A stretch of DNA of 64,000 nucleotides from Mobula hypostoma (lineage: Eukaryota). Both the position numbers and the translations under genes were made by a program. The notes below the pieces were generated by a model. It was not told the DNA's origin, searched no databases, and saw only the letters and a program-made list of their open reading frames with translations. This document shows positions 11,641 to 46,838 of the stretch, piece after piece. Location: NCBI RefSeq assembly GCF_963921235.1, contig NC_086097.1, positions 57,910,001 to 57,974,000 of the forward strand. Reading direction: 5' to 3'. Each line of letters begins with the position of its first letter. Position 1 is the first letter of the stretch.

Positions 11641-12212
11641 CATCTCATAAATATGTAGCGTGCTGTAAGGTTTCACTGCTAAGGTAATGGTTTCTCTGCA
11701 GCAGCAATGTTTGGGATATGACTAGAGATAACGGGACCTTTGGAATGTATGTTAGCCAATGAGCAGGATGTTGTTCTTTCTTGCAGGTCTGGGAGCAGGG
11801 ATTTGCGGTCTTATTGGCGAGAGATGAAGAGGGAAGATGCATATGGAAAGAGCTGGTAGACCACCGGACAGAGTGGATGGGGAGTGAGAGTCTGAAGGTC
11901 AGCAATACTCAGAGGAGGTCAATGGTGGACGAATGGTCTTATCAGTGAGCTCCAACATGCACATTCGACTTTTTCCTTACAATGGGCCCTTTTTTTTATT
12001 ATTTTCTTTACTAACCCTATATTCAGATTAAGATTTATAAAATTCAATCACTTAATTGCATATGGTGTACCGTCTGATATTTTGTGGTTCGGATTTGTAA
12101 CCAGGCAACACATCACGCAGCATCCACACAAACAAGATTTCATAGTTTGGCCGGGCCCGAGGTTGTCTTCCCCTAAACAAACGCGTGCTGGCCGAGCCTG
12201 AGGGTTACAATT

Positions 12213-12232
12213 GTGGGGTATCGTTCCGGGAT
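12213..12232 (+). promoter_or_regulatory. Primer-binding site, tRNA-Pro-like (degenerate)
   Basis: tggggtatcgttccgggat just after the LTR end resembles the tRNA-Pro PBS TGGGGGCTCGTCCGGGAT. Confidence 0.7.
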
Positions 12233-12484
12233 TGATTCTGTTGGATGCTGTGCAATTACCCTGAGCATTGAACCAGTGGGTTGTGTGTTTAAACCTGTGC
12301 TGGTGTGGATACTGAGGGTGTGAGGACACCCAGCAGGACTTAAAAAGAAACAAGACCTGACAAAGGGCAGTTGAGCTCCTTGTGAGCCGACGGCCATCTT
12401 CCGTGGAAGAGATTAAAGCCTCACCACGTATCTACGAATCGTATGCTATGCACCTAGGTAGAAAAGACATGATGAACTTGGGCA

Positions 12485-12648
12485 CTGCACCGTGTGCCTG
12501 GACCTGCCCAAGGAAGGGCAGAGCTCGAAGAAGCGGCCGCGGCTGGAGGCCGACACGGCCTTGGGTTCGAGTTTGGCAGAGGCGGTGGCTGGTGGTGCCA
12601 AGGTGGCCAGTGAGAACAAACTGGAGGAGAGGCTGTACTCAGTGCTGT
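12485..12648 (+). pseudogene. Captured, circularly permuted fragment resembling the CYHR1/ZFTRAF1 N-terminal coding sequence
   Basis: Translates [21 protein letters not shown]...[12 protein letters not shown]. From memory, vertebrate CYHR1 reads KKR...[20 protein letters not shown]. Confidence 0.75.
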
Positions 12649-12719
12649 CACAAGATCGAAGAAGATGGAGGTGCATAGCCACCAACCCCGGATTCGGGAC
12701 GGCACTCACTGACTGACTG

Positions 12720-14058
12720 GTGTGGATACTAGCGGGGTGGAGAGCTGGTATGCCTCCGTGGGGTTACTGGTAACTAATGCGTGTGTGTTGAGTGGGGTAG
12801 ATATTCGTACCCTGGATGAATTGTTAACTTGACTTTTGAGTACGGTTAAAGCTGTTAGTACAGTTGAGGTCGTAGCGCGGAGATTTGATAAAATGGCGGG
12901 CTCAGACCTTGTTTTAGTTCAGACTAGTGCTGACGTAACGGCGGTGGGACTGCCGGCGTCTATCGATGCCCCAGGTGAGGTGGGGCCATGGCCTGTCCAT
13001 ACTGCCAGGGAGGAGGGGAATGTAGCAGAGTGGCCGAGTCACAAGTTGAACTTCCCGTAGCTGGGAGCGGAAACTTCAAAGACAGGGTTCTATCGTTTCT
13101 GAGGAGTGAGGGGAAGGAGTGGTCGGATTTGGAATGTCTATTTAGTCCCCGTCCCCCAGTTAAGAGTGAGAGTTCTGAGCTGGCATCAGCCCTTACCCCT
13201 CTGGTGAACAAGTGGCCCAGTGCACAGACGGAGGGTTCCCAATGGAAGCTAAGAATATTCTCTAGAATAACGTCCACCCCGGAGGGGATGAGGAATATGA
13301 GACTTGGGTGGAGCAGACCTATCAGTTGTTAGATGAGTGACAGTGCTCTAATGACATAAAGCGACAGATTGGTTGAAAGCTTGAAGGGGTTGGCTGCTGA
13401 CATGGTGAGAGCTGTGAGAACTTGCCATCCCTCAGCTGGCCTTGCTGAGTATCTGGGCGCATTGGAGAGCGCTTTTGCTATGACAGGGAGCCTACTGAGC
13501 TCATGGTGGGGTTTCAGAACATGTGTCAGGAGAAGGGGAGAAGCTTTCTGCTTATATTTTTTGGCTAGAGAGGCAGCTAAATTGTTTGTGACACAGGGGG
13601 GTCATTCAGGCGGCTGAGGTGGATCAGTGAAGAATGGACCAGTCCCAGGACATGATTGCTTGGGGTCTCCGACAGTCCTGTGCTCCCCCCTCATTTGTTG
13701 AGCTGATCAGAGAGGTATGGGAGGAGGAGAACATGTCGGAGGCGGGGAGGGCTCTGTCAGCAGGGTACGGTCCTTGGTAGTAGCCCCTTATGGTGAAGTG
13801 ACTGCGGCTAGCCCAACCCAGGGGATGGTAAAGAAGATTGTGGCAGAGCTGAGAACTGAGGTGTTCCGGATGTTAACAGTGGGTGTGGTGGACCACCCGC
13901 CCTCCGTATGATAGTACTGGTAGAGAGGGGGACCCCTGAAGGGGACGGACTATGCAGAGGGCTGCGGGTGGCTGGAGTTCTGTGGAAAGCAGGGGAGCGG
14001 CCTATATTGTCAGTTACAACTGTGGTGAAGAGAGACACTTCAGGCGGGAATATGAGTA
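12720..14058 (+). pseudogene. PNMA/MOAP1-like Gag (disrupted); its C-terminal tail resumes at 21312-21390
   Basis: WKLRIFS..TPEG, EEYETWVEQ, LVESLKGLAADMVR and YLGALESAF resemble the PNMA capsid domain; degenerate Zn knuckle YNCGEERHFRRE. Confidence 0.85.
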
Positions 14059-14603
14059 ATAGACAATAGACAATAGACAATAAGTGCAGGAGTAGGTCAT
14101 TCGGCCCTTCGAGCCAGCACCGCCATTCACTGTGATCATGGCTGATCATCCACAATCAGTATCCAGTTCCTGCCTTCTCCCCATAACCTTTGATTCCGCT
14201 ATCTTTAAGAGCTCTATCCATCTCTTTCTTGAAAGCATCCAGAGACTTGGCCTCCACAGCCTTCTGGGGCAGAGCATTCCATATATCCACCACTCTCTGG
14301 GTGAAAAAGTTTTCCCTCAACTCCGTTCTAAATGGCCTACCCCTTATTCTTAAACTGTGGCCTCTGGTTCTGGACTCACCCACCAGCGGGAACATGCTTC
14401 CTGCCTCCAGCGTGTCCAATCCCTTAATAATCTTATATGTTTCAATAAGATCCCCTCTCAGCCTTCTAAATTCCAGAGTATACAAGCCCAGTCACTCCAA
14501 TCTTTCGACAGATTCGAAGAAGGAGTCTGAGAGTCTGAGTGGGAGTGCCGAGAAAGAGATTTTTGAAATTTTCGTTATTTTTTTTTCTCCAACGGCTTTC
14601 TGA

Positions 14604-14660
14604 GAGGCGGGACTGCGCAGGCGTGTGACGTCGGGCAGTGCAGTGCGGCAGATTTAAAAG
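14604..14660 (+). promoter_or_regulatory. Candidate internal Pol II promoter of the CR1 5' UTR
   Basis: Clustered GC box (ggcggga), NRF1-like tgcgcaggcg, CRE-like tgacgtc and tttaaaa. Confidence 0.45.
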
Positions 14661-14823
14661 GAACAAAGCCTCATAGAGCGGGCAGCGTAGTTTGCGGGCT
14701 GCGGAGTGAGCCGGGAGCAGAGTGAAGACTTAAGGGCTTCGGCTCAATGGGCTTAGGCGGAGATGGGCGAGGCGAGGAAGGTTTGACATTCATTTTCTGT
14801 TGCTATTTGAGGAGAGGGGCAGT

Positions 14824-15759
14824 ATGAGTGTGAGGGCAGTTTGCTGTTCTCGGTGTCGGATTTGGGAGGCCCTGGAGTCTCCAAGCCTCCCAGACGTCTA
14901 CATCTGCGCCAAGTGCATCGAGATACAGCTCCTAAGGGACCGCGTTACGGAACTGGAGCTGCAGCTCGATGACCTTCGTCTGGTCAGGGAGAGCGAGGAG
15001 GTGATAGAGAGGAGTGTAAGGCAGGTGGTCACGCCGGGGCCACGGGAGGCAGACAAGTGGGTCACGGTTAGGAGGGGGAAGGGGAAAAGTCAGGTGATGG
15101 GGAGTACCCTGGTGGCTGTTCCCCTTAACAACAGGTACTCCTGTTTGAGTACTGTTGTGGGGGACAACTTACCCGGGGGAAGCGACAGTGGCCGTGCTTC
15201 TGGCACAGAGTCTGGCCCTGTAGCTCAGAAGGGTAGGGCAAGGAAGAGGAGGGCAGTTGTGATAGGGGACTCGATAGTAAGGGGGTCAGATAGGCGATTC
15301 TGTGGACGCAGTCCAGAGACCCGGATGGTAGTTTGCCTCCCTGGTGCCAGGGTCCGGGATATTTCTGATCGTGTCCAAGATATCCTGAAGTGGGAGGGTG
15401 AGGAGCCAGAGGTCGTGGTACATATAGGTACCAATGACATAGGTAGGAAAAGGGATGAGGTCCTGAAAGGAGAATATAGGGAGCTAGGAAGGGAGTTGAG
15501 AAAAAGGACCGCAAAGGTAGTAATCTCGGGATTACTGCCTGTGCCACGCGACAGTGAGAGTAGGAATGTGATGAGGTGGAGGATAAATGCGTGGCTGAGG
15601 GATTGGAGCAGGGGGCAGGGATTCAAGTTTTTGGATCATTGGGACCTCTTTTGGCGCAGGCGTGACCTGTACAAAAAGGGCGGGTTACACTTGAATCCTA
15701 GGGGGACCAATATCCTGGCAGGGAGATTAGCGGGGGCTACTGAGGTGACTTTAAACTAG
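14824..15759 (+). CDS. CR1 ORF1p: Cys-rich zinc finger, leucine zipper and SGNH esterase
   Basis: Uninterrupted ORF; CSRC...CAKC, heptad leucines, VIGDS, VHIGTND and GGLH (the DxxH Asp is Gly here). Confidence 0.93.
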   Translation: MSVRAVCCSRCRIWEALESPSLPDVYICAKCIEIQLLRDRVTELELQLDDLRLVRESEEVIERSVRQVVTPGPREADKWVTVRRGKGKSQVMGSTLVAVPLNNRYSCLSTVVGDNLPGGSDSGRASGTESGPVAQKGRARKRRAVVIGDSIVRGSDRRFCGRSPETRMVVCLPGARVRDISDRVQDILKWEGEEPEVVVHIGTNDIGRKRDEVLKGEYRELGRELRKRTAKVVISGLLPVPRDSESRNVMRWRINAWLRDWSRGQGFKFLDHWDLFWRRRDLYKKGGLHLNPRGTNILAGRLAGATEVTLN

Positions 15760-18700
15760 AATGGTTGGGGGGTGGGAATCAAATTAAAGAGGCTAGGCGT
15801 GAGGAGGTTAGTTCACAACAGAGGGATGGGAACCAGTGCAGAGAGACAGAGGGGTGTAAAGTGAGCGTAGAAGCAAAAAGTACAAAGGAGAAAAGTAAAA
15901 GTGGCAGGCCGACAAATCCAGGGCAAGCATTAAAAAGGGCCACTTTTCAACATAATTGTACAAGGGCTAAGAGAGTTGTAAAAGAGCGCCTGAAGGCTTT
16001 ATATGTCAATGCAAGGAGCATTCGTAATAAGGTGGATGAATTGAAAGTGCAGATTGTTATTAATGATTATGATATAGTTGGGATCACAGAGACATGGCTC
16101 CAGGGTGACCAGGGATGGGAGCTCAACGTTCAGGGATGTTCAATTTTCAGGAGGGATAGACATGAAGGAAGGGGAGGTGGGGTGGCATTGCTGGTTAAAG
16201 AAGAGATTAACGCAATAGAAAGGAAGGACATAAGCCGGGAAGATGTGGAATCGATATGGGTAGAGCTGCGTAACACTAAGGGGCAGAAGACACTGGTGAG
16301 AGTTGTGTACAGGCCACCTAACAGTAGTAGTGAGGTCGGAGATGGTATTAAACAGGAAATTAGAAATGTGTGCAATAAAGGAACAGCAGTTATAATGGGT
16401 GACTTCAATCTACATATAGACTGGGTGAACCAAATTGGTAAAGGTGCTGAGGAAGAGGATTTCTTGGAATGTATGCGGGATGGTTTTTTGAACCAACATG
16501 TCGAGGAACCGACTAGAGAGTAGGCTATTCTGGACTGGGTTTTGAGCAATGAGGAAGGGTTAATTAGCGATCTTGTCGTGAGAGGCCCCTTGGGTAAGAG
16601 TGACCATAATATGGTGGAATTCTTCATTAATATGGAGAGTGACATAGTTAATTCAGAAACAAAAGGTTCTGAACTTAAAGAGGGGTAACTTTGAAGGTAT
16701 GAGACGTGAATTAGCTAAGATAGACTGGCAAATGACACTTAAAGGATTGACGGTGGATATGCAATGGCAAGCATTTAAAGGTTGCATGGATGAACTACAA
16801 CAATTGTTCATCCCAGTTTGGCAAAAGAATAAATCAAGGAAGGTAGTACACCCGTGGCTGACAAGAGAAATTAGAGATAGTATCAATTCCAAAGAAGAAG
16901 CATACAAATTAGTCAGAGAAAGTGGCTCACCTGAGGACTGGGAGAAATTCAGAGTTCAGCAGAGGAGGACAAAGGGCTTAATTAGGAAGGGGAAAAAAGA
17001 TTATGAGAGAAAACTGGCGGGGAACATAAAAACGGACTGTAAAAGCTTTTATAGATATGTAAAAAGGAAAAGACTGGTAAAGACAAATGTAGGTTCCCTG
17101 CAGACAGAAACAGGTGAATTGATTATGGGGAGCAAGGACATGGCAGACCAATTGAATAATTACTTTGGTTCTGTCTTCACTAAGGAGGACATAAATAATC
17201 TTCCAGAAATAGTAAGGGACAGAGGGTCCAGTGAGATGGAGGAACTGAGTGAAATACATGTTGGTAGGGAAGTGGTGTTAGGTAAATTGAAGGGATTGAA
17301 GGTAGATAAATCCCCAGGGCCAGATGGTCTGCATCCTAGAGTGCTTAAGGAAGTAGCCCAAGAAATAGTGGATGCATTAGTGATAATTTTTCAAAACTCG
17401 TTAGATTCTGGTCTAGTCCCTGAGGTTTGGAGGGTGGCTAATGTAACCCCACTTTTTAAAAAAGGAGGGAGAGAGAAACCGGGGAATTATAGACCGGTTA
17501 GCCTAACGTCGGTGGTGGGGAAACTGCTGGAGTCAGTTATCAAGGATGTGATAACAGCACATTTAGAAAGCGGTGAAATGATCGGACAAAGTCAGCATGG
17601 ATTTGTGAAAGGAAAATCATGTCTGACGAATCTCATAGAATTTTTTGAGGATGTAACTAGTAGAGTGGATAGGGGAGAACCAGTGGATGTGGTATATTTG
17701 GATTTTCAAAAGGCTTTTGACAAGGTCCCACACAGGAGATTAGTGTGCAAACTTAAAGCACACGGTATTGGGGGTAAGGTATTGGTGTGGGTGGAGAATT
17801 GGTTAGCAGACAGGAAGCAAAGAGTGGGAATAAACGGGACCTTTTCAGAATGGCAGGCGGTGACTAGTGGGGTACCGCAAGGCTCAGTGCTGGGACTCCA
17901 GTTGTTTACAATATATATTAATGACTTGGATGAGGGAATTAAATGCAGCATCTCCAAGTTTGCGGATGACACGAAGTTGGGTGGCAGTGTTAGCAGTGAG
18001 GAGGATGCTAAGAGGATGCAGGGTGACTTGGATAGGTTGGGTGAGTGGGCAAACTCATGGCAGATGCAATTTAATGTGGATAAATGTGAAGTTATCCACT
18101 TTGGTGGCAAAAATAGGAAAACAGATTATTATCTGAATGGTGGCCGATTAGGAAAAGGGGAGGTGCAATGAGACCTGGGTGTCATTATACACCAGTCATT
18201 GAAAGTGGGCATGCAGGTACAGCAGGCGGTGAAAAAGGCGAATGGTATGCTGGCATTTATAGCGAGAGGATTCGAGTACAGGAGCAGGGAGGTACTACTG
18301 CAGTTGTACAAGGCCTTGGTGAGACCACACCTGGAGTATTGTGTGCAGTTTTGGTCCCCTAATCTGAGGAAAGACATCTTTGCCATAGAGGGAGTACAAA
18401 GAAGGTTCACCAGATTGATTCCTGGGATGGCAGGACTTTCATATGAAGAAAGATTGGATGAACTGGGCTTGTACTCGTTGGAATTTAGAAGATTGAGGGG
18501 GGATCTGATTGAAACGTATAAGATCCTAAAGGGATTGGACAGGCTAGATGCAGGAAGATTGTTCCCGATGTTGGGGAAGTCCAGAACGAGGGGTCACAGT
18601 TTGAGGATAGAAGGGAAGCCTTTTAGGACCGAGATTAGGAAAAACTTCTTCACACAGAGAGTGGTGAATCTGTGGAATTCTCTGCCACAGCAAACTGTTG

Positions 18701-18798
18701 AGGCCAGTTCATTGGCTATGTTTAAGAGGGAGTTAGATATGGCCCTTGTGGCTACAGGGGTCAGGGGGTATGGAGGGAAGGCTGGGGCGGGGTTCTGA
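15750..18798 (+). pseudogene. CR1 ORF2p (APE endonuclease and RT) with three lesions
   Basis: NARS, GITETW, GDFN, SDH, FADD; TAG at 16521, +1 A near 16661-16664, TGA at 18169. Confidence 0.95.
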
Positions 18799-21365
18799 GT
18801 TGGATGATCAGCCATGATCATAATAAATGGCGGTGCAGGCTCGAAGGGCCGAATGGCCTACTCCTGCACCTATTTTCTATGTTTCTATGTTTCTATATGA
18901 CAGTCCCGCCATCCCAGGAATTAACCTTGTGAACCTACGCTGCACTCCCTCAATAGCAAGAATGTCCTTCCTCAAATTTGGAGACCAAAACTGCACACAG
19001 TACTCCAGGTGTGGTCTCACCAAGGCCCTGTACAGCTGCAGAAGGACCTCTTTGCTCTTATACTCAATTCCCCTTGTTATGAAGGCCAGCATGCCATTAG
19101 CTTTTTTCACTGCCTGCTGTACTTGCATGCTTTCTTTCAGTGACTGATGTACAAGAACACCTAGATCTCGTTGTGCTTCCCCTTTTCCTAACTTGACTCC
19201 ATTTAGATAATAATCTGCCTTCCTGGTCTTACCACCAAAGTGGATAACCTCACATTTATCCACATTAAACTGCATCTGCAATGCATCTGCCCACTCACCC
19301 AGCCTGTCCAAGTCACCCTGCATTCTCATAACATCCTCCTCACATTTCACACTGCCTCCCAGCTTTGTGTCATCAGCAAATTTGCTAAGGTTACTTTTAA
19401 TTCCCTCATCTAAATCATTACTATATATTGTAAACAGCTGCGGTCCCAGCACTGAACCCTGCGGTACCCCACTGGTCACCACCTGCCATTCCGAAAGGGA
19501 CCCGTTAATCGTTACTCTTTGTTTTCTGTCAACCAGCCAATTTTCAGTCCATGTCAGTACTCTGCCCCCAATACCATGTGTCCTAATTTTGCCCACTAAT
19601 CTCCTATGTGGGACTTTATCAAAGGCTTTCTGAAAGTCCAGGTACACTACATCCACTGGCTCTCCCTCATCCATTTTCATAGTTACATCCTCAAAAAATT
19701 CCAGAAGATTAGTCAAGCACAATTTCCCCTTCATAAATCCATGCTGACTTGGACCAATCCTGTTACTACTATCCAGATGTGTCGTAATTTCATCTTTTAT
19801 AATTGACTCCAGCATCTTTCCCACCACCGACATCAGGCTAACGGGTCTATAATTCCCTGTTTTCTCTTTTCCTCCCTTCTTGAAGAGAGGGACAACATTA
19901 GCCACACTCCAATCCACAGGAACTGATCCTGAATCTATAGGACATTGGAAAATGATTACCAATGCATCCACAAATTCTAAAGCCACCTCCTTAAGTACCC
20001 TGGGATGCAGACCATCAGGTCCCGGGGACTTATCAGCCTTCAGACCCAACAGCCTATCCAACACTATTTCCTGCCTAATATAAATTTCCTTCAATTCATC
20101 CATTATCCTAGGTCTTTTGGCCACTATTACATCTGGGAGATTGTTTGTGTCTTCCCTAGTAAAGACAGATCCAAAGTACCTTTTCAACTCGTCTGGCATT
20201 TCCTTGTTCCCAATAATAAATTCACCCGCTTCTGTTTTCAAGGGCCCAATTTTAGTCTTAACTATTTTTTTCCTTTTCACATACCTAAGGAAGCTTTTAC
20301 TATCCTCCTTTATATTCTTGGCTAGTTTACCTTCGTACCTCATTTTTTCTCCGCATATTGCCTTTATAGTTACCTTCTGTTGCTCTTAAAAGTTTCCCAA
20401 TCCTCCGGCTTCCCACTCGTCTTTGCTATGTTGTACTTCTTCTCTTTTATTTTTATACTGTCCATTACTTCCCTTGTCAGTCATGGCCTCCCCTTACTCC
20501 CCTTAGGATCTTTCTTCCTCTTTGGAACGAACTGATCCTGCACCTTCCACATTATTCCCAGAAACACTTGTCATTGCTGTTCCACTGTCATCTCTGCTAG
20601 GGTATTGTTCCATTGAACTTTGGCCAGCTCCTCCCTCATAGCACCATAGTTCCCTTTGTTCAACTGTAATACTGACACCTCCGAGTTTCCCTTCTCCCTC
20701 TCAAATTGTAGATTAAAGCTTATCATATTATGGTCACTACCTCCTAATGGCTCCTTTACCTCGAGGTCCCTGATAAAATCCGGTTCATTGCACAACACTA
20801 AATCTAGAATTGCATTCTCTCTGGTAGGCTCCAGTACAAGCTGTTCTAAGAATCCATCTCGGAGGGACTCCACAAACTCCCTTTCTTGGGGTCCAGTACC
20901 AACCTGATTCCTCCAGTCTACCTACATGTTGAAGTCCTCCATAACACCTGTAGCATTACCTTTGCGACATGCCAATTTTAACTCTTGATTCAACTTACAC
21001 CCTACATCCAGACTACTGTTTGGGGGCCTGTAGATAACTCCCATTAGGGTCTTTCTACCCTTAGAATTTCTCAGTTCTATCCATACTGACTCTACGTCTC
21101 CTGATTCTATGTCCCCCTTGCAAGGGACTGAATATCATTCCTCACCAACAGAGCCACCCCACCCCCTCTGCCCATCAGTCTGTCCTTTCGATAGGACGTA
21201 TAGCCTTGAATATTCATTTCCCAGGCCCTGTCCACTTGAAGCCATGTCTCTGTTATTCCCACAACATCATACTTACCAATTTCCAACTGTGCCTCAAGCT
21301 CGTCCACAGTAGCAGGAAGCCCCTCGGAGAGTGAGCCCCTGGGCACCGAAGCAGGGAGAGGTGTC

Positions 21366-21426
21366 GGGAAACTTAGAGGAGACCCAGTGAGGGAATGGCC
21401 TGGTGTCTCTGGGGGAACACATTCCC
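21366..21426 (+). promoter_or_regulatory. -1 ribosomal frameshift signal (G GGA AAC plus H-type pseudoknot) at the gag-pol junction
   Basis: Heptamer 21366-21372 in gag phase; stem 1 21378-21387/21400-21410; stem 2 gggaatg 21391-21397 with cattccc 21420-21426; pol lies in the -1 frame. Confidence 0.8.
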
Positions 21427-22700
21427 AGCAATGTACCAAGGAACCCCCAAAAGTGAAAGACTCTATTCCTGAAGGCTTAGTGGGACCATGCTCCAGTGTG
21501 TCACTAGGGATAGAGGGTATTTATGCTAAAGCCATACTCGACACCGGGTCGCAGGTCACATTGTTGTACCGTTCGTTTTACAACTGGTGTCTGAAATATT
21601 TACCATTGACACTTTTCAGGGCACTGGACATCTGGGGTCTCAGTGCTGGTGATTATTCATACGAAGGTTATTTGTCAGTGAAGCTGGAGTTCCCGGAGCC
21701 CGATGTGGGACTGTTGGAAGTCCTTGATACATTAGTGCTGGTTTGTCTGGATCCCACTGTTTCAATCCTGGTGGGGACCAACACCCCTCTTGTGAAGAGG
21801 CTCATGGGAGCCTGCAAGGAGAAGGCTGGCAAGAGCCGTCTGGGGACATCGTCTGTGCTCCCAGTGGTTCGAGCTGCTTTTGAGGAAGTGTGTGGCTGCA
21901 TTGGGCCGGATACCGAATTTAAACGATGGACTGTGTGGTTCACCCAGTTGAAGCCAATGGTGATACGGCCTGGGGAAGTAGCAAGAGTGATGAGGACCCC
22001 CCAATTTCCCGGAGTGCCTGAGGGTGAGGTTCTCTTAGTGGACGCTCCGGAAGACCACGAGGGAGAGTCGGGATTTCCTGCTGGGGTACTGGTGAGGCCC
22101 GAATTGCAGAAGCCCTCGGTTGTACAGGTGAGCAGGATGGCAGTGATTGTCAGGAACACTACGAAGAGGCAGGTCACCTTCAAGCGGGGGATGCCCCTGG
22201 CGCACCTGTTCCCAGTGATGGTAACGTCTAGTGTCCCTGTGAGCCGGAGTCTGTCGCCCTCTGAGAAAGACTATCCCACGCACAAGTTGGAATTTCTGGC
22301 GTTGAAATGGGCGGTGCTGGATAAGCTGAGTGACTACCTCTACAGGGCCAAGTTTGAGGTGAGGACGGACAACAACCCCCTAACTTATATTCTGACGTCA
22401 GTGAAACTGTATGCCACAGGCCATCGGTGGTTGGCAGCGTTGTCTGCCTGATTTCAGCCTGAAGTCCCAGCTGGGAAGCTGGAACATTGATGCTGATGCT
22501 TTGTCCCAATGGGTGCATGAGGGCCTGGACAGGGACGAGGAGTGGGAGAGCATTCCCGCCCCAGGGATGAAGGTCATGTGTCAGTTTGCCATCACCATGA
22601 AGGTAGAGGAAAAGAGGGGCAGGATCGAGTGGTAGATCAATTGGGAACTTCTGATGACACTATTCCCCAAGTTTACTGTAGCCTGACTGTTCTGAAGACA

Positions 22701-22810
22701 CACACATAAAAAATGCTGGTGAACGCAGCAGGCCAGGCAGCATCTATAGGAAGAGGTACAGTCGACGTTTCGGGCCGAGGCCTTTCGTCAGGACTAACTG
22801 AAAGAAGAGA
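22701..22810 (-). mobile_element. Penelope-like terminal fragment
   Basis: cacaca..aaaatgctgg..gcagcatc end shared with four other copies; 10-bp TSD TCTGAAGACA. Confidence 0.8.
22760..22795 (-). ncRNA. Minimal type I hammerhead ribozyme motif
   Basis: Minus strand AGUC-CUGACGA-aaggccucggccc-GAAAC-GUC-GACU. Confidence 0.75.
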
Positions 22811-23505
22811 TCTGAAGACAAATCAGCTGCTGGAATTGAGTTCTGGGGAAGTGGCAGCTGCTCAGCGAGATGACCTGGGCATTGTATCATTTGGTCAGCG
22901 GTCGAAAAGGGAGACATGGCTCAGGCAGAGAAGACAAAACATATGGCGGTATCTCCATTACTGAGAGAATGTCCCTGGTTGGAGTTGCGGAACCATATCC
23001 TATACCCGGTCATGTCACCCCTGGACCCTTATCAATGAATTCCAACGTGCACATTTGACTTTCTCCTTTTTTCTGTATATTTTCTTTACCATCCCTATAT
23101 TCAGATTAAGATTTATGAAGTTCAATCATTTAATTGCATATGGTGTACTGTCTGATATTTTGCGGTTCGGATTTGTAACTGGGCAACACGTCATGTAGCA
23201 TCCACACAAACGAGATTTCTCAGTTTGGCCAGGCCAGAGGCTGTCTTCCCCTGACCTAGACGAACACGTGCTGGCCGAACCTGAGGGTTACAAATATTTT
23301 CCATTTTGGCAGGAACTTAAACAAAAGAACTCTCATTAGCTCAGTTAACTTACATGTGAAATACTGTATATGGCAGATAAGCAGCCAGTGTTAATCTGCA
23401 AGCTGCTTTATGCAGATTATAAAGTAAGTGTCTAGTTAGTAGGAACTTATTGTCAGGAGCATAATCATAGCAAAACTCAAAGTAAATGTATTATCCAAGT
23501 ACATA

Positions 23506-39985: not shown

Positions 39986-42339
39986 AACTGGATGTATCTT
40001 CTCCTTGGTAGGGACCCACTGTTCAAATAGTAGGTATTGGCAGCTAAACTCATCATAGAAACATAGAAATATAGAAAATAGGTGCAGGAGTAGGCCATTC
40101 AGCCCTTCGAGCCTGCACCGCCATTCAGTATGTTCATGGCTGATCATCCAACTCAGAACCCTGTACCTGCCTTCTCTCCATACCCCCTGATCCCTTTAGC
40201 TACAAGGGCCATATCTAACTCCCTCTTAAATATAGCCAATGAACTGGCCTCAACTGTTTCCCGTGGCAGAGAATTCCACAGATTCACCACTCTGTGTGAA
40301 GAAGTTTTTCCTCATCTCGGTCCTAAAAGGCTTCCCCTTTATCCTTAAACTGTGACCCCTCGTTCTGGACTTCCCCAACATCGGGAATAATCTTTCTGCA
40401 TCTAGCCTGTCCAATACCTTTAGAATTTTATACGTTTCAATAAGATCCCCCCTCAATCTTCTAAATTCCAGCGAGTATAAGCCTAGTCGATCCAGTCTTT
40501 CATCATATGAAAGTCCTGCCATCCCAGGAATCAATCTAGTGAACCTTCTTTGTACTCCCTCTATGGCAAGAATGTCTTTCCACAGATTAGGGGACCAAAA
40601 CTGCACACAATACTCCAGGTGTGGTCTCACCAAGGCCTTGTACAACTGCAGTAGTACCTCCCTGCTCCTGTACTCGAATCCTCTTGCTATGAATGCCAGC
40701 ATATCATTTGCCTTTTTCACCGACTGCTGTACCTGCATGCCCACTTTCAATGACTGGTGTATAATGACACCCAGGTCTCATTGCACCTCCCCTTTTCCTA
40801 ATCGTCCACCATTCAGATAATAATCTGTTTTCCTGTTTTTCCCACCAAAGTGGATAACTTCACATTTATCCACATTAAATTGCATCTGCCATGAATTTGC
40901 CCACTCACTTAACCTATCCAAGTCTCCCTGCATCCTCTTAGCATCCTCCTCACAGCTAACACTGCCGCCCAGCTTCATGTCATCCGCAAACTTGGAGATG
41001 CTGCATTTAATTCCCTCATCCAAGTCATTAATATATATTGTAAACAACTGGGGTCCCAGCACTGAGCCTTGCGGTACCCCACTAGTCACTGCCTGCCATT
41101 CTGAAAAGGTCCCGTTTATTCCCACTCTTTGCTTGCTGTCTGCCAACCAATTCTCTATCCACATCAATACCATACCCTCAATACAGTGTGCTTTAAGTTT
41201 GCACACTAATCTCCTGGGTGGGGCCTTGTCAAAAGCCTTTTGAAAATCCAAATATACCACATCCACTGGTTCTCCCCTATCCACTCTACTAGTTACATCC
41301 TCAAAAAATTCTATGAGATTCATCAGACATGATTTTCCTTTCACAAATCCATGCTGACTTTGTCAGATGATTTCACCGCTTTCCAAATGTGCTGTTATCG
41401 CACCTTTGATAACTGACTCTGGCATTTTCCCCACCACCGATGTTAGGCTAACCGGTCTATAATTCCCCGGTTTCTCTCTCCCTCATTTTTTAAAAAGCAG
41501 GGTTACATTAGCCACCCTCCAATCCTCAGAAACTAGTCCAGAATCGGAAGAGTTTTGAAAAATTATCACTAATGTATCCACTATTTCTTGGGCTACTTCC
41601 TTAAGCACTCTGGGATGCAGACCATCTGGCCCTGGGGATTTATCTGCCTTTAATCCCTTCAATTTACCTAACACCACTTCCCTACTAACATGTATTTCCC
41701 TCAGTTCCTCCATCTCACTGGACCCTCTGTCCCCTACTATTTCTGGAAGATTATTTATGTCCTCCCTAGCGAAGACGGAACCAAAGTAGTTACTCAATTG
41801 GTTTGCCATGTCCTTGTTCCCCATAATCAATTCACCTGTTTCTGACTGTAAGGGACCTACATTTGTCTTAACCAGTCTTCTTCTTTTCACATATCTATAA
41901 AAGCTTTTGCAGTCAGTTTTTATGTTCCCTGCCAGCTTTCTCTCATAATCTTTTTTCCCTTTCCTAATTAAGCCCTTTGTCCTCCTCTGCTGCACTCTGA
42001 ATTTCTCCCAGTCCTCAGGTGTGCTGCTTTTTCTGGCTAATTTGTATGTTTTTTCTTTGGAATTGATATTATCCCTAATTTCCTTTGTCAGCCATGGGTG
42101 CACTACTTTCCCTGGTTTATTCTTTTGCCAAACTGGGATGAACAATTGTTGTAGTTCATCCATGCAATCTTTAAATCCTTGCCATTGCATATCCACCGTC
42201 AACCCTTTAAGTATCATTTTCTAGTCTACCTTAGCTAACTCACATCTCATACCTTCAAAGTTACCCATCTTTAAGTTCAGAACCTTTGTTTCTGGATTAA
42301 CTATGTCACTCTCTATCTTAATGAAGAATTCCACCATAT

Positions 42340-42817
42340 GTACTAAAGACTGGATGAACTGGGCTTGTACTAAAGACTGGATGAACTGGGCTTGTACTCG
42401 TTGGAATTTAGAAGATTGAGGGGGGATCTGATTGAAACGTATAAGATCCTGAAGGGATTAGACAGGCTAGATGCAGGAAGATTTTTCCCGATGTTGGGGA
42501 AGTCCAGAATGAGGGGTCACAGTTTGAGGATAGAAGGGAAGCCTTTTAGGACCAAGATTAGGAAAAACTTCTTCACACAGAGAGTGGTGAATCTGTGGAA
42601 TTCTCTGCCACAGCAAACTGTTGAGGCCAGTTCATTGGCTATGTTTAAGAGGGAGTTAGATATGGCCCTTGTGGCTACGGGGGTCAGGGGGTACGGAGGG
42701 AAGGCTGGGGCGGGGTTCTGAGTTGGATGATCAGCCATGATCATAATAAATGGCAGTGCAGGCTCGAAGGGCCGAATGGCCTACTCCTGCACCTATTTTC
42801 TATGTTTCTATGTTTCT
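42340..42817 (+). mobile_element. Short CR1 3' insertion (copy 4, element A type)
   Basis: Nearly identical to 18449-18895; TSD ATAT; 27-bp duplication at the 5' junction. Confidence 0.95.
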
Positions 42818-43285
42818 ATATTATGGTCACTCTTACTGAAGGGGCCTCTCATGACAAGATTGCTAATTAACCCTTCCCCATTGCTCAATACTTAGTCTAG
42901 AATGGCCTGCTCTCTAGTTGGTTCCTCGACATGTTGGTTCAGAAAACGATCCCGCATACATACCAAGAAATCCTCTTCCTCAGCACCCTTACCAATTTGG
43001 TTCACCCAGTCTATATGTAGATTGAAGTCACTCATTATAACTGCTGTTCCTTTATTGCACGCATTTCTAATTTCCTGTTTAATGCTATCCCCAACCTCAC
43101 TACTACTGTTAGGTGGCATGTACACAACTCCCACCAGCGTCTTCTGCCCCTTAGTGTTATGCAGTTCTACCCATATCGATTCCACATCCTCCCAGCTAAT
43201 GTCCTTCCTTTCTATTGAATTAATCTCCTCTCTAACCAGCAATGCCAGCCCACCTCCTTTTCTTTCATGTCTATTCCTCCTTGAA

Positions 43286-43840
43286 TGTGGACAATTCTGA
43301 TTTGATGGAGGCAGACGTGAAAGCACAGAGGAACATCTGCCGGAATTTCTGAAGTGCCAGTTTGTTGCTGCTGTTACTGCACGATCAAGAATCTTCCGGA
43401 GGGAAGGTCCCAAAATCCCCGGTTTTGCCTGCTGCTGGTGACCGAGGCTGAGGTCGAAGCGCTTGGATAGAGATGGTGCTCGGTACTCGGTGTCGGAGGC
43501 TTGAAGTTTTCAGACGACTCAGTGTCAGACTGTGGTCGGGCACAGCAGGGAGAGTGTCCTTCCTTCTCTTGTCTGTGTGAGATGTGGGACATTCGAGAGA
43601 CTTTGAACTTTTTTACTGTGCCATGGCCTGTTCTTCACCAAGTTATGGTATTGTTGTACTGTTGTAACTATATGTTATAATTATGGTGGTTTTTGTTAGT
43701 TTTTCAGTCTTGGTCTGTCCTGTGTTTCTGTGATATCACACCGGAGGAATATTGTATCATTTCTTAATGCATGCATTACTAAATGACAATAAAAGAGGAC
43801 TGCATGTCCTCGTAAACTAATCTAATCTAATCTAATCTAA
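43286..43840 (+). mobile_element. Non-coding retroposon, copy 3 (5'-truncated)
   Basis: Colinear with 29700-30308; hairpin and (taatc)4 tail. Confidence 0.82.
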
Positions 43841-46838
43841 CGTTGAGCTCCCATCCTTGGTCACCCTGGAACCATGTCTCTGTGATCCCAACTATATCAT
43901 ATTCATTAATAACTATCTGTACTTTCAATTCATCCACCTTGTTACAAATACTCCTTGCATTGACACACAAAGCCTTCAGGCTTGCTTTTACAACACTCTT
44001 ATCCCTTATACAATTATGTTGAAAAGTGGCCCTTTTTGATTTTTGCCCTGGATTTGCCTGCCTGCCACTTTTACTTTTCACCTTACTACTTTTTGCTTCT
44101 GCCCTCATTTTACATCCCTCTGTCTCTCTGCACTTGTTCCCATCCCCCTGTCACATTAGTTTAAATCCTGCTGAACAACAATAGCAAATGCTTCCCCTAG
44201 GACATTGGTTCCAGTCCAGCCCAGGTGCAGACTGTCCTGTTTGTAACGGTCCCATCTCCTCCAAAACTGTTTCCAATGTCCCAGAAGTTTGAATCCCTCC
44301 CTCTTGCACCATTTTTCAAGCCACGTATTCATCTGATATATCATAAGATCATAAGACCATAAGACAAAGGAGCAGAAGTCGGCCATTCGGCCCATCAAGT
44401 CTGCTCCGACATTTTATCATGAGCTGATCCATTCTCCCATTTAGTCCCACTCCCCCGCCTCCTCACCATAACCTTTGATGCCCTGGCTACTCAGATACCT
44501 ATCAATCTCTGCCTTAAATACACCCAGTGACTTGGCCTCCACTGCCGCCCGTGGCAACAAATTCCATAGATTCATCACCCTCTGGCTAAAAAAGTTTCTT
44601 CACATTTCTGTTCTGAATGAGCAGCCTTCAATTCTTAAGTCATGCCCTCTCATACTAGACTCCACCATCATGGGAAACAACTTTGCCACATCCACTCTGT
44701 CCATACCTTTCAAAATTCGAAATGTTTTTTCTAAACTCCAAGGAATACAGTCCAAGAGCAGACAAACGTTCCTCATATGTTAACCCTCTCATTCCCGGAA
44801 TCATTCTAGTGAATCATCTCTGTACCCTCTCCAACGTCAGCCCATTCTTTCTTAAATAAGGAGACCAAAACTGCCCACAGTACTCCAAGTGAGGTCTCAC
44901 CAGCACCTTATAGAGCCTCAGCATCCCATCCCTGCTCCTATACTCTATTCCTCTAGAAATGAATGCCAACATTCGCCTTCTTCACCACTGACTCAACCTG
45001 GAGGTTAACCTTAAGGGTATCCTGTATGAGGACTCCCAAGTCCCGTTGCATCTCAGAACTTTGAATTCTCTCCCAATTTAAATAATAGTCTGCCCGTTTA
45101 TTTCTTCTGCCAAAGTGCATAACCATACATGTTCCAACATTGTATTTCATTTGCCACTTCTCTACCCATTCTTCCAATCTATCCCTCTGCAGATTCTCTG
45201 TTTCCTCAGCACTACTGGCCCCTCCACCTATCTTCGTATCGTCAGCAAACTTAGCCACAAAGCCATCTATTCCATAATACAAATCATTAATGTACAATGT
45301 AAAAAGAAGCTGCCCCAACACGGACCCCTGTGGAAAACCACTAGTAACCGACAACCAACCAGAATAGGATCCCTTTATTCTCACTCTCTGTTTCCTGCCA
45401 ATCAGCCAATGCTCTATCCACATATGTAACTTTCCCGTAATTCCATGGGCTCTTATCTTGTTAAGTAGCCTCATGTGTGGCACCTTGTCAAAGGCCTTCT
45501 GAAAATCCAAATATACAACATCCACTACATCTCCCTTGTCTAGCCTACTTGTAATTTCCTCAAAAAACTGTAATAGGTTTGTCAGGCAGGATTTTCCTTT
45601 GAGGAATCCATGCTGAGTTCTGCCTATCTTGTCATTTGCCTCCAGGTACTCTGTAACCTCATCCTTGACAATCGACTCCAACAACTTCCCAACCACCGAC
45701 GTCAAGCTAACAAGTCTATAATTTCCTCTTTGCTTCCTTGCCCCCTTCTTAAATAGCGGAGTGATATTTGCAATCTTCCAGTCCTCCAGAACCATGCCAG
45801 AATCTATCGACTTTTGAAAGATCATCGCTAATGCCTCCACAATCTCCACAGCTACTTCCTTCAGAACACGAGGGTGCATTCCATCTGGTCCGGGACATTT
45901 ACCTACCTTTAGACTATTCAGCTTCCTGAGTACTTTCTCTGTCGTAATTGTGACTGCGCACACTTCTCTTCCCTGCCACCCTTGAGTGTCCGGTATACTG
46001 CTGATGTCTTCCTCAGTGAACACTGATGCAAAATACTCGTTCAGTTCCTCCGCCATCTCCTTATCTCCCATTACAATTTCTCCAGCATCATTTTCTATCG
46101 GTCCCATATCTACTCTCACCTGTCTTTTACTCTTTATATACTTGAAAAAGCTTTTAGTATCCTCTTTGATATCATTTGCTAGCTTCCTTTCAAAGTTAAT
46201 CTTTTCTCTCTTAATGACCTTCTTAGTTTCCTTTTGTAAGCTTTTAAAAACTTCCCAATCTTCTGTCTTCCCACTAATTTTTGCTTCCTTGTATGCCCTC
46301 TCCTTAGCTTTAACTTTGGCTTTGACTTCTCTTATCAGCCACGGTTGCATCCTTTTTCCATTCGAAAATTTCTTCTTTTTTGGAATATACCTGTCTTGCA
46401 CCTTCCTCACTTCTCGCATAAACTCCAGATACTGCTGCATTGCCGTCCTTCCCGCTAGTGTCCCTTTCCAGTCAACTTTGGCCAGTTCCTCTCTCATGCA
46501 ACTATAATTTCCTTTACTCCACCTCGAGCACATCACATTTCAGCTTCTCTTTTTCAAATTTCACAGTGAACTCAATGATGTTATGATCACAGTCCCCTAC
46601 AGGTTCCTTCACCTCAATCTCTCTAATCACCTCCAGTTCATTACACAATACCCAATCCAGTACAGCCGATCCCCTAGTGGGCTCAACAACAAGCTGTTCT
46701 AAAAAGCCATCTTGCAGACATTCTACAAATTCTCTCTCTTGAGCTCCAGTGCTGACCTGATTTTCCCAATCCACTCGCATGTTAAAATCCCGCACAATTA
46801 TCATAACACTGCCCTTCTGACAAGCCTTTTCTATTTCC

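Follow-up and report, generated by a model that had tools for sequence, protein, structure and literature searches.

A permuted piece of ZFTRAF1 exon 1 in the middle of a young non-LTR retroposon family of Mobula hypostoma

A ZFTRAF1-derived block that lies between the LTR and the gag fragment of a decayed Gypsy element in the genome of Mobula hypostoma was found to belong to a retroposon inserted there. The window, i.e., the whole stretch of 64,000 nt that was analyzed (contig NC_086097.1, positions 57,910,001 to 57,974,000), contains one copy of this retroposon at 12314-12719, which is 5'-truncated and bordered by a 14-bp target duplication. The complete non-LTR unit is about 580 nt long and consists, in this order, of a hairpin head, a part of a LINE 5' region, a 178-nt piece of exon 1 of the host gene ZFTRAF1 with its two parts swapped, and 70 nt of the LINE 3' end. 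The exon piece was likely captured only once, probably from RNA, and now stands in more than 700 copies. The features of the window are listed below.

11663..23293, plus strand: decayed Gypsy-type LTR element, landing site only (Pfam PNMA, RT_RNaseH and LTR matches)
From about 11663, plus strand: Gypsy 5' LTR (LTR match of 83% over 278 nt)
12300..12313, plus strand: target-site duplication of 14 bp, left copy, in Gypsy sequence (the same 14-mer flanks the insert on either side)
12314..12483, plus strand: body derived from the 5' region of the presumably RTE-type LINE, 5'-truncated here (five full-length family copies at 84-89% to the 5' region of the full-length LINE copies L097/L099)
12484..12513, plus strand: part B, which lies downstream in ZFTRAF1 exon 1 but comes first here (29 nt at 100% to host exon 1, L024)
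12511..12648, plus strand: part A, the upstream 138 nt of the exon 1 piece, placed second (89.9% over 138 nt to L024)
12649..12719, plus strand: 3' end of the LINE with the last ORF codons, the stop and the 4-nt microsatellite tail (same tail on LINE copies)
12717..12730, plus strand: right copy of the target-site duplication, its first 3 nt overlapping the tail (identical 14-mer)
13360-13614, plus strand: Gypsy PNMA-like gag fragment (Pfam PNMA, E 2.6e-8)
21240-22451, plus strand: Gypsy RT-RNase H fragment (RT_RNaseH, E 2e-13)
23028-23293, plus strand: partial Gypsy 3' LTR (LTR match of 83% over 278 nt)

The permuted ZFTRAF1 exon 1 sequence

Sawfish ZFTRAF1 was the sole match to the block among 232 longer-protein candidates (E 7.6e-8), and re-translation of positions 12486-12647 reproduced the protein reading of the first-pass annotation, in which the block had been named a circularly permuted CYHR1/ZFTRAF1-like fragment. 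The two parts of the block corresponded to residues 114-122 and then 64-112 of the sawfish protein, i.e., in swapped order. In the host genome, ZFTRAF1 was found as a single gene with four exon matches on one contig (G000:C5). Both parts were compared separately with the host, as that annotation had proposed in the expectation of adjoining matches in reversed order, and this was the outcome: positions 12485-12513 matched host exon 1 at 100% over 29 nt, positions 12511-12648 matched it at 89.9% over 138 nt, and the two pieces adjoin in exon 1 in the opposite order to that of the block, with the last base of part A next to the first base of part B. The identity of the gene was confirmed. Since exon 1 of the host gene is itself in the normal order, the permutation of the block is real; an assembly chimera, which had been named as a possible source of error, is contradicted by the presence of the same junction at 732 places.

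The block had also been described as GC-rich, which agreed with a GC content of 58.5% in the bin containing most of it, against 41.5-55% in the surrounding bins. The exon 1 piece, 178 nt long in its usual form and taken from the GC-rich exon 1, is wholly exonic and stands in sense orientation to the LINE.

The retroposon family and its landing site

A pattern covering the junction between part A and the tail gave at least 732 matches with at most one mismatch, a count to be read as a lower bound, and 0 matches in the reversed control. A DNA search with the block yielded 920 candidates, 40 of which were scored; the likeness of the scored copies to the window spanned about 12314 to 12719, and the Gypsy flanks were not shared. 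Other copies had the upstream body, the 70-nt downstream piece and the 4-nt microsatellite tail in common, with unrelated flanks and variable 5' ends, and an exact repeat of 8-18 nt at the tail and the 5' end was seen by eye in about 20 of 44 copies. The body in the window (12314..12483) carries the 7-nt and 10-nt deletions of the family together with the putative start codon of the LINE at 12448, and the 3' end of other family copies matched LINE L099 at 92-97%. The unit of about 580 nt is multi-copy, bears target duplications, shows 5' truncation and holds no reverse transcriptase coding sequence.

In the five loci with full heads, no Rfam match for the head (tRNA, ribozyme) was found at E<=1, and a tRNA head or a ribozyme was rejected on this ground. 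The unit is not a SINE in the strict sense of a tRNA, 7SL or 5S head with a Pol III promoter, as its head aligns to the LINE 5' region. Contigs of four runs were also compared with positions 12314-12478; the segment was covered completely by X1 alone and in part by X5, X10, and X19, a result that is uninformative on absence or expression.

The Gypsy element, which is also broken up by LINE insertions, was compared with 14 relatives, these being the best matches to the upstream flank of the surrounding LTR element. The 14-mer that is duplicated around the retroposon was single in 14 of 14 of these copies; the block was found at this site in 0 of 14, their flanks being contiguous and none matching the insert. 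Since the Gypsy element is 11-14% diverged from its relatives, it is older than the inserted retroposon, and by these comparisons the window copy is an insertion into an older Gypsy element. In the first-pass annotation, the block had been taken as part of the Gypsy leader and the Gypsy family as a carrier that, if the block were fixed in it, would spread a host fragment. The alignment of other family copies, which the annotation itself had called for, gave a different picture on both points, with an inserted element of 403 nt and its 14-bp target duplication in the window and empty sites in all 14 relatives. In the window copy, the block lies after the LTR and before the gag fragment, which would suit a cargo of the Gypsy family, but this reading was rejected and has next to no chance of being right, because 14 of 14 relatives are empty at the site and the target duplication brackets a unit that is found at hundreds of unrelated sites. 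The block gives no evidence of the Gypsy element spreading host genes.

Number of captures, junctions, and route of capture

Divergence from the column majority was 2.8% at non-CpG and 16.8% at CpG positions in 60 family copies, a sample biased to good matches, and 2.4% in 22 LINE 3' ends. The family majority differed from host ZFTRAF1 at 3 of 178 positions, the family tree was star-like, and every copy that was read had the same order and the same 3' seam. Empty or intermediate forms gave 0 matches in one narrow pattern test, and in a further narrow pattern test for the empty form the insert was kept in 8 of 8. A tail pattern excluding the insert matched 147 places; the 30 loci read among these were three ordinary family copies and otherwise LINE ends or short truncations, with no empty form. 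In addition, four odd matches were read, which comprised two LINE fragments without the insert and two ordinary family copies. The common order and 3' seam, the star-like tree, the low divergence, and the failure to find an empty form in these tests suggest that the capture of the exon piece likely happened once, and this capture was likely followed by one burst of copying.

At the position before the block (12484), 45 of 60 copies had G, 14 had A, and one had T. This variation follows the pattern of CpG decay, by which the base at 12484 in the window is read as a decayed G. With G in 45 of 60 copies, the seam is exact and rebuilds the host sequence with nothing gained or lost; the single G that had been reported as missing at the seam was not lost in the rearrangement.

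In the long form of the internal junction, which gave 441 exact matches, part B is 40 nt long and ends 4 nt before the splice donor of exon 1, and part A is 138 nt long. The short form seen in the window, in which part B has been shortened by a 13-nt deletion, gave 16 matches at one mismatch. The length of 164 bp assigned to the block is accordingly right for the window copy, not for the family, in which 178 nt is usual, and the apparent end of the LPK junction about five codons short of the exon end is the result of this secondary deletion. The short-junction copies were scattered over the star-like, poorly supported tree, which disfavors a single subfamily, and repeated deletion between two near-identical 8-mers would be the likelier source of the short form. 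Two loci on opposite strands about 100 kb apart (L148 and L149, G000:C12) had the same shortened part B and are probably one insertion duplicated with its surroundings. At face value, no shared bases were found at the three joins; a variant giving two shared bases at the 5' join occurred in 1 of 25 LINE copies.

We favor a single capture from ZFTRAF1 exon 1 RNA by template jumps of the LINE reverse transcriptase, which on balance is the probable route, ahead of a DNA circle, back-splicing, and RNA ligation in that order. The enzyme would have copied the last 70 nt of the LINE RNA, moved onto exon 1 RNA at the seam and copied 138 nt toward its 5' end, resumed 4 nt before the splice donor and copied 40 nt back to the exact entry point, and then moved onto the LINE 5' region. 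We infer this copying order from the arrangement of the pieces. The template would be exon 1 RNA cut once at the seam, either as a closed circle, with two jumps, or as two pieces held together, with three. The earlier suggestion of one turn around a circle or two precise template switches holds in this form. The product keeps the LINE 5' region and the 3' recognition tail, so the LINE protein would copy it in trans, and the host piece is most likely neutral cargo. The sense orientation, the wholly exonic content, and the end 4 nt from the donor point to an RNA origin of the piece, and three joins without shared bases are as expected for end-to-end jumps. For R2, jumps to cellular RNAs and internally deleted elements have been reported in vivo (PMC3414825), and double jumps have been reported to give tripartite chimeras (PMC2104539). 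Against the template jumps, no intermediate form survives in the tests that were run, the linear version needs three jumps, and the donor-proximal end and the sense strand may be chance (a few percent times one half, as a rough estimate).

The length of 178 nt, which is near one nucleosome repeat, suits a DNA circle instead. A 178-bp circle (microDNA) from the GC-rich exon 1 could have been opened by a single cut and have served as filler during break repair in an RTE copy whose interior was lost, and the product would then have spread as RNA; the exact seam would be the product of the one cut, and blunt joins also fit end-joining. Short direct repeats are typical of microDNA circle junctions, but none was found at this one at face value, and one of 2 nt appears only if a loss of 2 nt is assumed. 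A DNA break has no reason to fall 4 nt from the donor or to favor the sense strand, and a 2.8-kb deletion and the capture of a circle would have to coincide at one break, so that this origin is doubtful, even though exons, 5' UTRs, and CpG islands are reported as preferred sources of microDNA (PMC8040306). Spliceosomal back-splicing from the exon 1 donor to a cryptic AG, with reverse transcription of the circRNA into the element and later loss of two bases in the founder, is unlikely. The exact donor-to-AG circle would be 180 nt and in frame, and the actual junction is only 2 nt shorter; since the founder is also missing about 98, 7, and 10 nt at other places, the loss of 2 nt from an exact back-splice is conceivable, and circRNA-derived pseudogenes exist (PMC4897178). 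However, no copy has a junction reaching the donor: the corresponding pattern, with one mismatch allowed, matched the host gene only, and none was longer among the 100 listed of 441 gapped matches to the long junction. Upstream of the cryptic AG inside exon 1, which comes after a G, 45% of the bases are pyrimidines; the corresponding value is 80% for a CAG 24 nt farther upstream, which was not used. The first-pass annotation had also disfavored back-splicing, a conclusion that stands on these grounds, i.e., the lack of a donor-reaching copy and the poor acceptor, and not on the one it had given, which concerned the minority deletion. Ligation of LINE and exon 1 fragments as RNA before reverse transcription would likewise give blunt joins, and RNA ligation before retrotransposition, as by RtcB, has been reported for U6/L1 chimeras (PMC6789731), but three ligations of compatible ends would be needed and the sequence bears no direct sign of them, which makes this route very improbable.

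Known relatives, coding frame, hairpin head, and partner LINE

Each part of the family has known counterparts: bipartite derivatives of RTE elements, chimeras made by template jumps, and pseudogenes derived from circles. Among non-autonomous bipartite RTE elements, Bov-A, RTESINE1/2, WALLSI3, and MAR4_MD (Kojima, 2018; PMC5786205) likewise combine a LINE 5' region with the extreme 3' end and a microsatellite tail, encode no reverse transcriptase, and depend on a partner LINE. As far as they are described there, they differ from the present family, which has a permuted piece of a host protein-coding exon at the join and a head made as a fold-back copy of the LINE 5' region and marked by A-to-G changes. 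R2 SIDEs and template-jump chimeras (PMC3414825, PMC2104539) resemble it in being internally deleted LINEs with a foreign middle and joins attributed to jumps. The middle of the R2 SIDE is reported as 197 bp without an identified source (PMC3414825) and the tripartite chimera as one copy in which three RNAs are joined by their ends (PMC2104539), whereas here an identified exon is permuted and amplified to more than 700 copies.

The non-colinear order of host exon sequence is shared with circRNA-derived pseudogenes (Dong et al., 2016; PMC4897178), for which one circle has been reported to give 33 mouse pseudogene copies with LTR sequence enriched in the flanks. Those pseudogenes are described with an exact exon-exon back-splice junction and several exons, whereas here the permutation lies within one exon, the junction falls 4 nt short of the donor, with a weak AG as the would-be acceptor, and does not join a splice pair exactly; a non-LTR unit serves as the carrier. 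As a small segment of GC-rich exon 1, the 178-nt piece resembles microDNA, which is small and derived from exons and CpG islands; fixation of microDNA in the germline inside a mobile element is not described in the sections of PMC8040306 considered here, and the present junction has no flanking microhomology. Among the papers listed by literature searches, none names the family or describes the combination of these parts in a family of more than 700 copies; prior annotation in repeat databases such as Repbase or Dfam is possible.

The origin of the middle part of short retroposons is usually unknown (PMC5786205), and the present family is a young (<3% diverged), highly replicated record of a piece of host RNA becoming such a middle part. 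Its exact permutation constrains the mechanism of capture more than most chimeras do. For annotators, the hundreds of ZFTRAF1-like matches in this genome are repeat copies, and in RNA reads the retroposon copies would mimic a back-splice-like junction.

In its usual form, the unit contains one frame of 93 codons that opens at the putative LINE start, passes through part A in the frame of the host gene, and closes at the LINE stop. This frame starts at window position 12448 and is intact in, e.g., L009, L010, L026, and L042; the LINE C-terminus was scored as reached in 18 of 43 translations, and in the window copy the 13-nt deletion shifts the frame. The chance of two independent phase matches is about one in nine. 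The 36 copies retrieved by DNA or pattern searches had N/S ratios of 1.07, 0.78, and 0.80; those of the 24 copies that a protein search had supplied, a biased set, were 0.40-0.63. The private changes in the 36 less-biased copies look neutral, with no good sign of selection on the copies. In a bolder reading, the family would preserve, as a fossil, a host circular RNA copied through exactly one round and turned into the body of a successful retroposon, with the fusion selected for the 93-codon frame and its basic KKRPR motif, and the more than 700 copies could act on ZFTRAF1 as a source of decoys, whether sense, antisense, or peptide; we regard this as decidedly unlikely.

In full-length copies (e.g., L015, L018, L031, and L043), the first 130 nt or so fold into a long hairpin, below which the window copy is truncated. 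Three heads gave z values of -6.2, -4.1, and -1.5 for the fold, and a fourth, which was cut longer, gave -3.0. The 5' region of the LINE is the source of both arms. Among the substitutions fixed in the family, A-to-G changes account for 11 of 13 in the downstream arm and for 0 of 5 past the hairpin, and three more A-to-G changes were seen by eye in the upstream arm; they are likely the frozen trace of A-to-I editing of the founder RNA.

The autonomous LINE whose 5' region gave rise to the 5' part of the retroposon resides in the same genome, and the 3' end with the microsatellite tail is common to both. We tentatively take this partner to be RTE-type, an assignment made from its layout and its C-terminal motif. 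Two LINE copies aligned over 3,241 nt with endonuclease and RT fragments in line, and the LINE is thus 3.2 kb or more, with both ends common to the retroposon. Alignment of 17 family copies with 13 LINE copies placed the deletions of about 98, 7, and 10 nt in the retroposon body relative to the LINE 5' region. An insert that interrupts the C-terminal codons of the LINE was considered and rejected, as the upstream flank of the exon piece is LINE 5' region.

Above a shared point, at least two different LINE 5' extensions were seen (L103, L111, and L120 vs. L106, L108, L113, and L116), which suggests subfamilies with swapped 5' ends. One LINE copy (L098, about 2010-2525) was truncated and had an inverted 5' segment of 516 nt. 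In the window, LINE copies were found at 14734-18798 (plus strand), 18877-20385 (minus strand), 40250-43509, and 44953-46539; the first of these, which is nested in the Gypsy element, has a GDSL esterase-type ORF1 (14734-15759) followed by endonuclease and RT fragments. Further, two short LINE tails (L064 and L067) had 940 nt of upstream sequence in common at 98%, so that either a segmental duplication or the embedding of a tail in another repeat would account for them.
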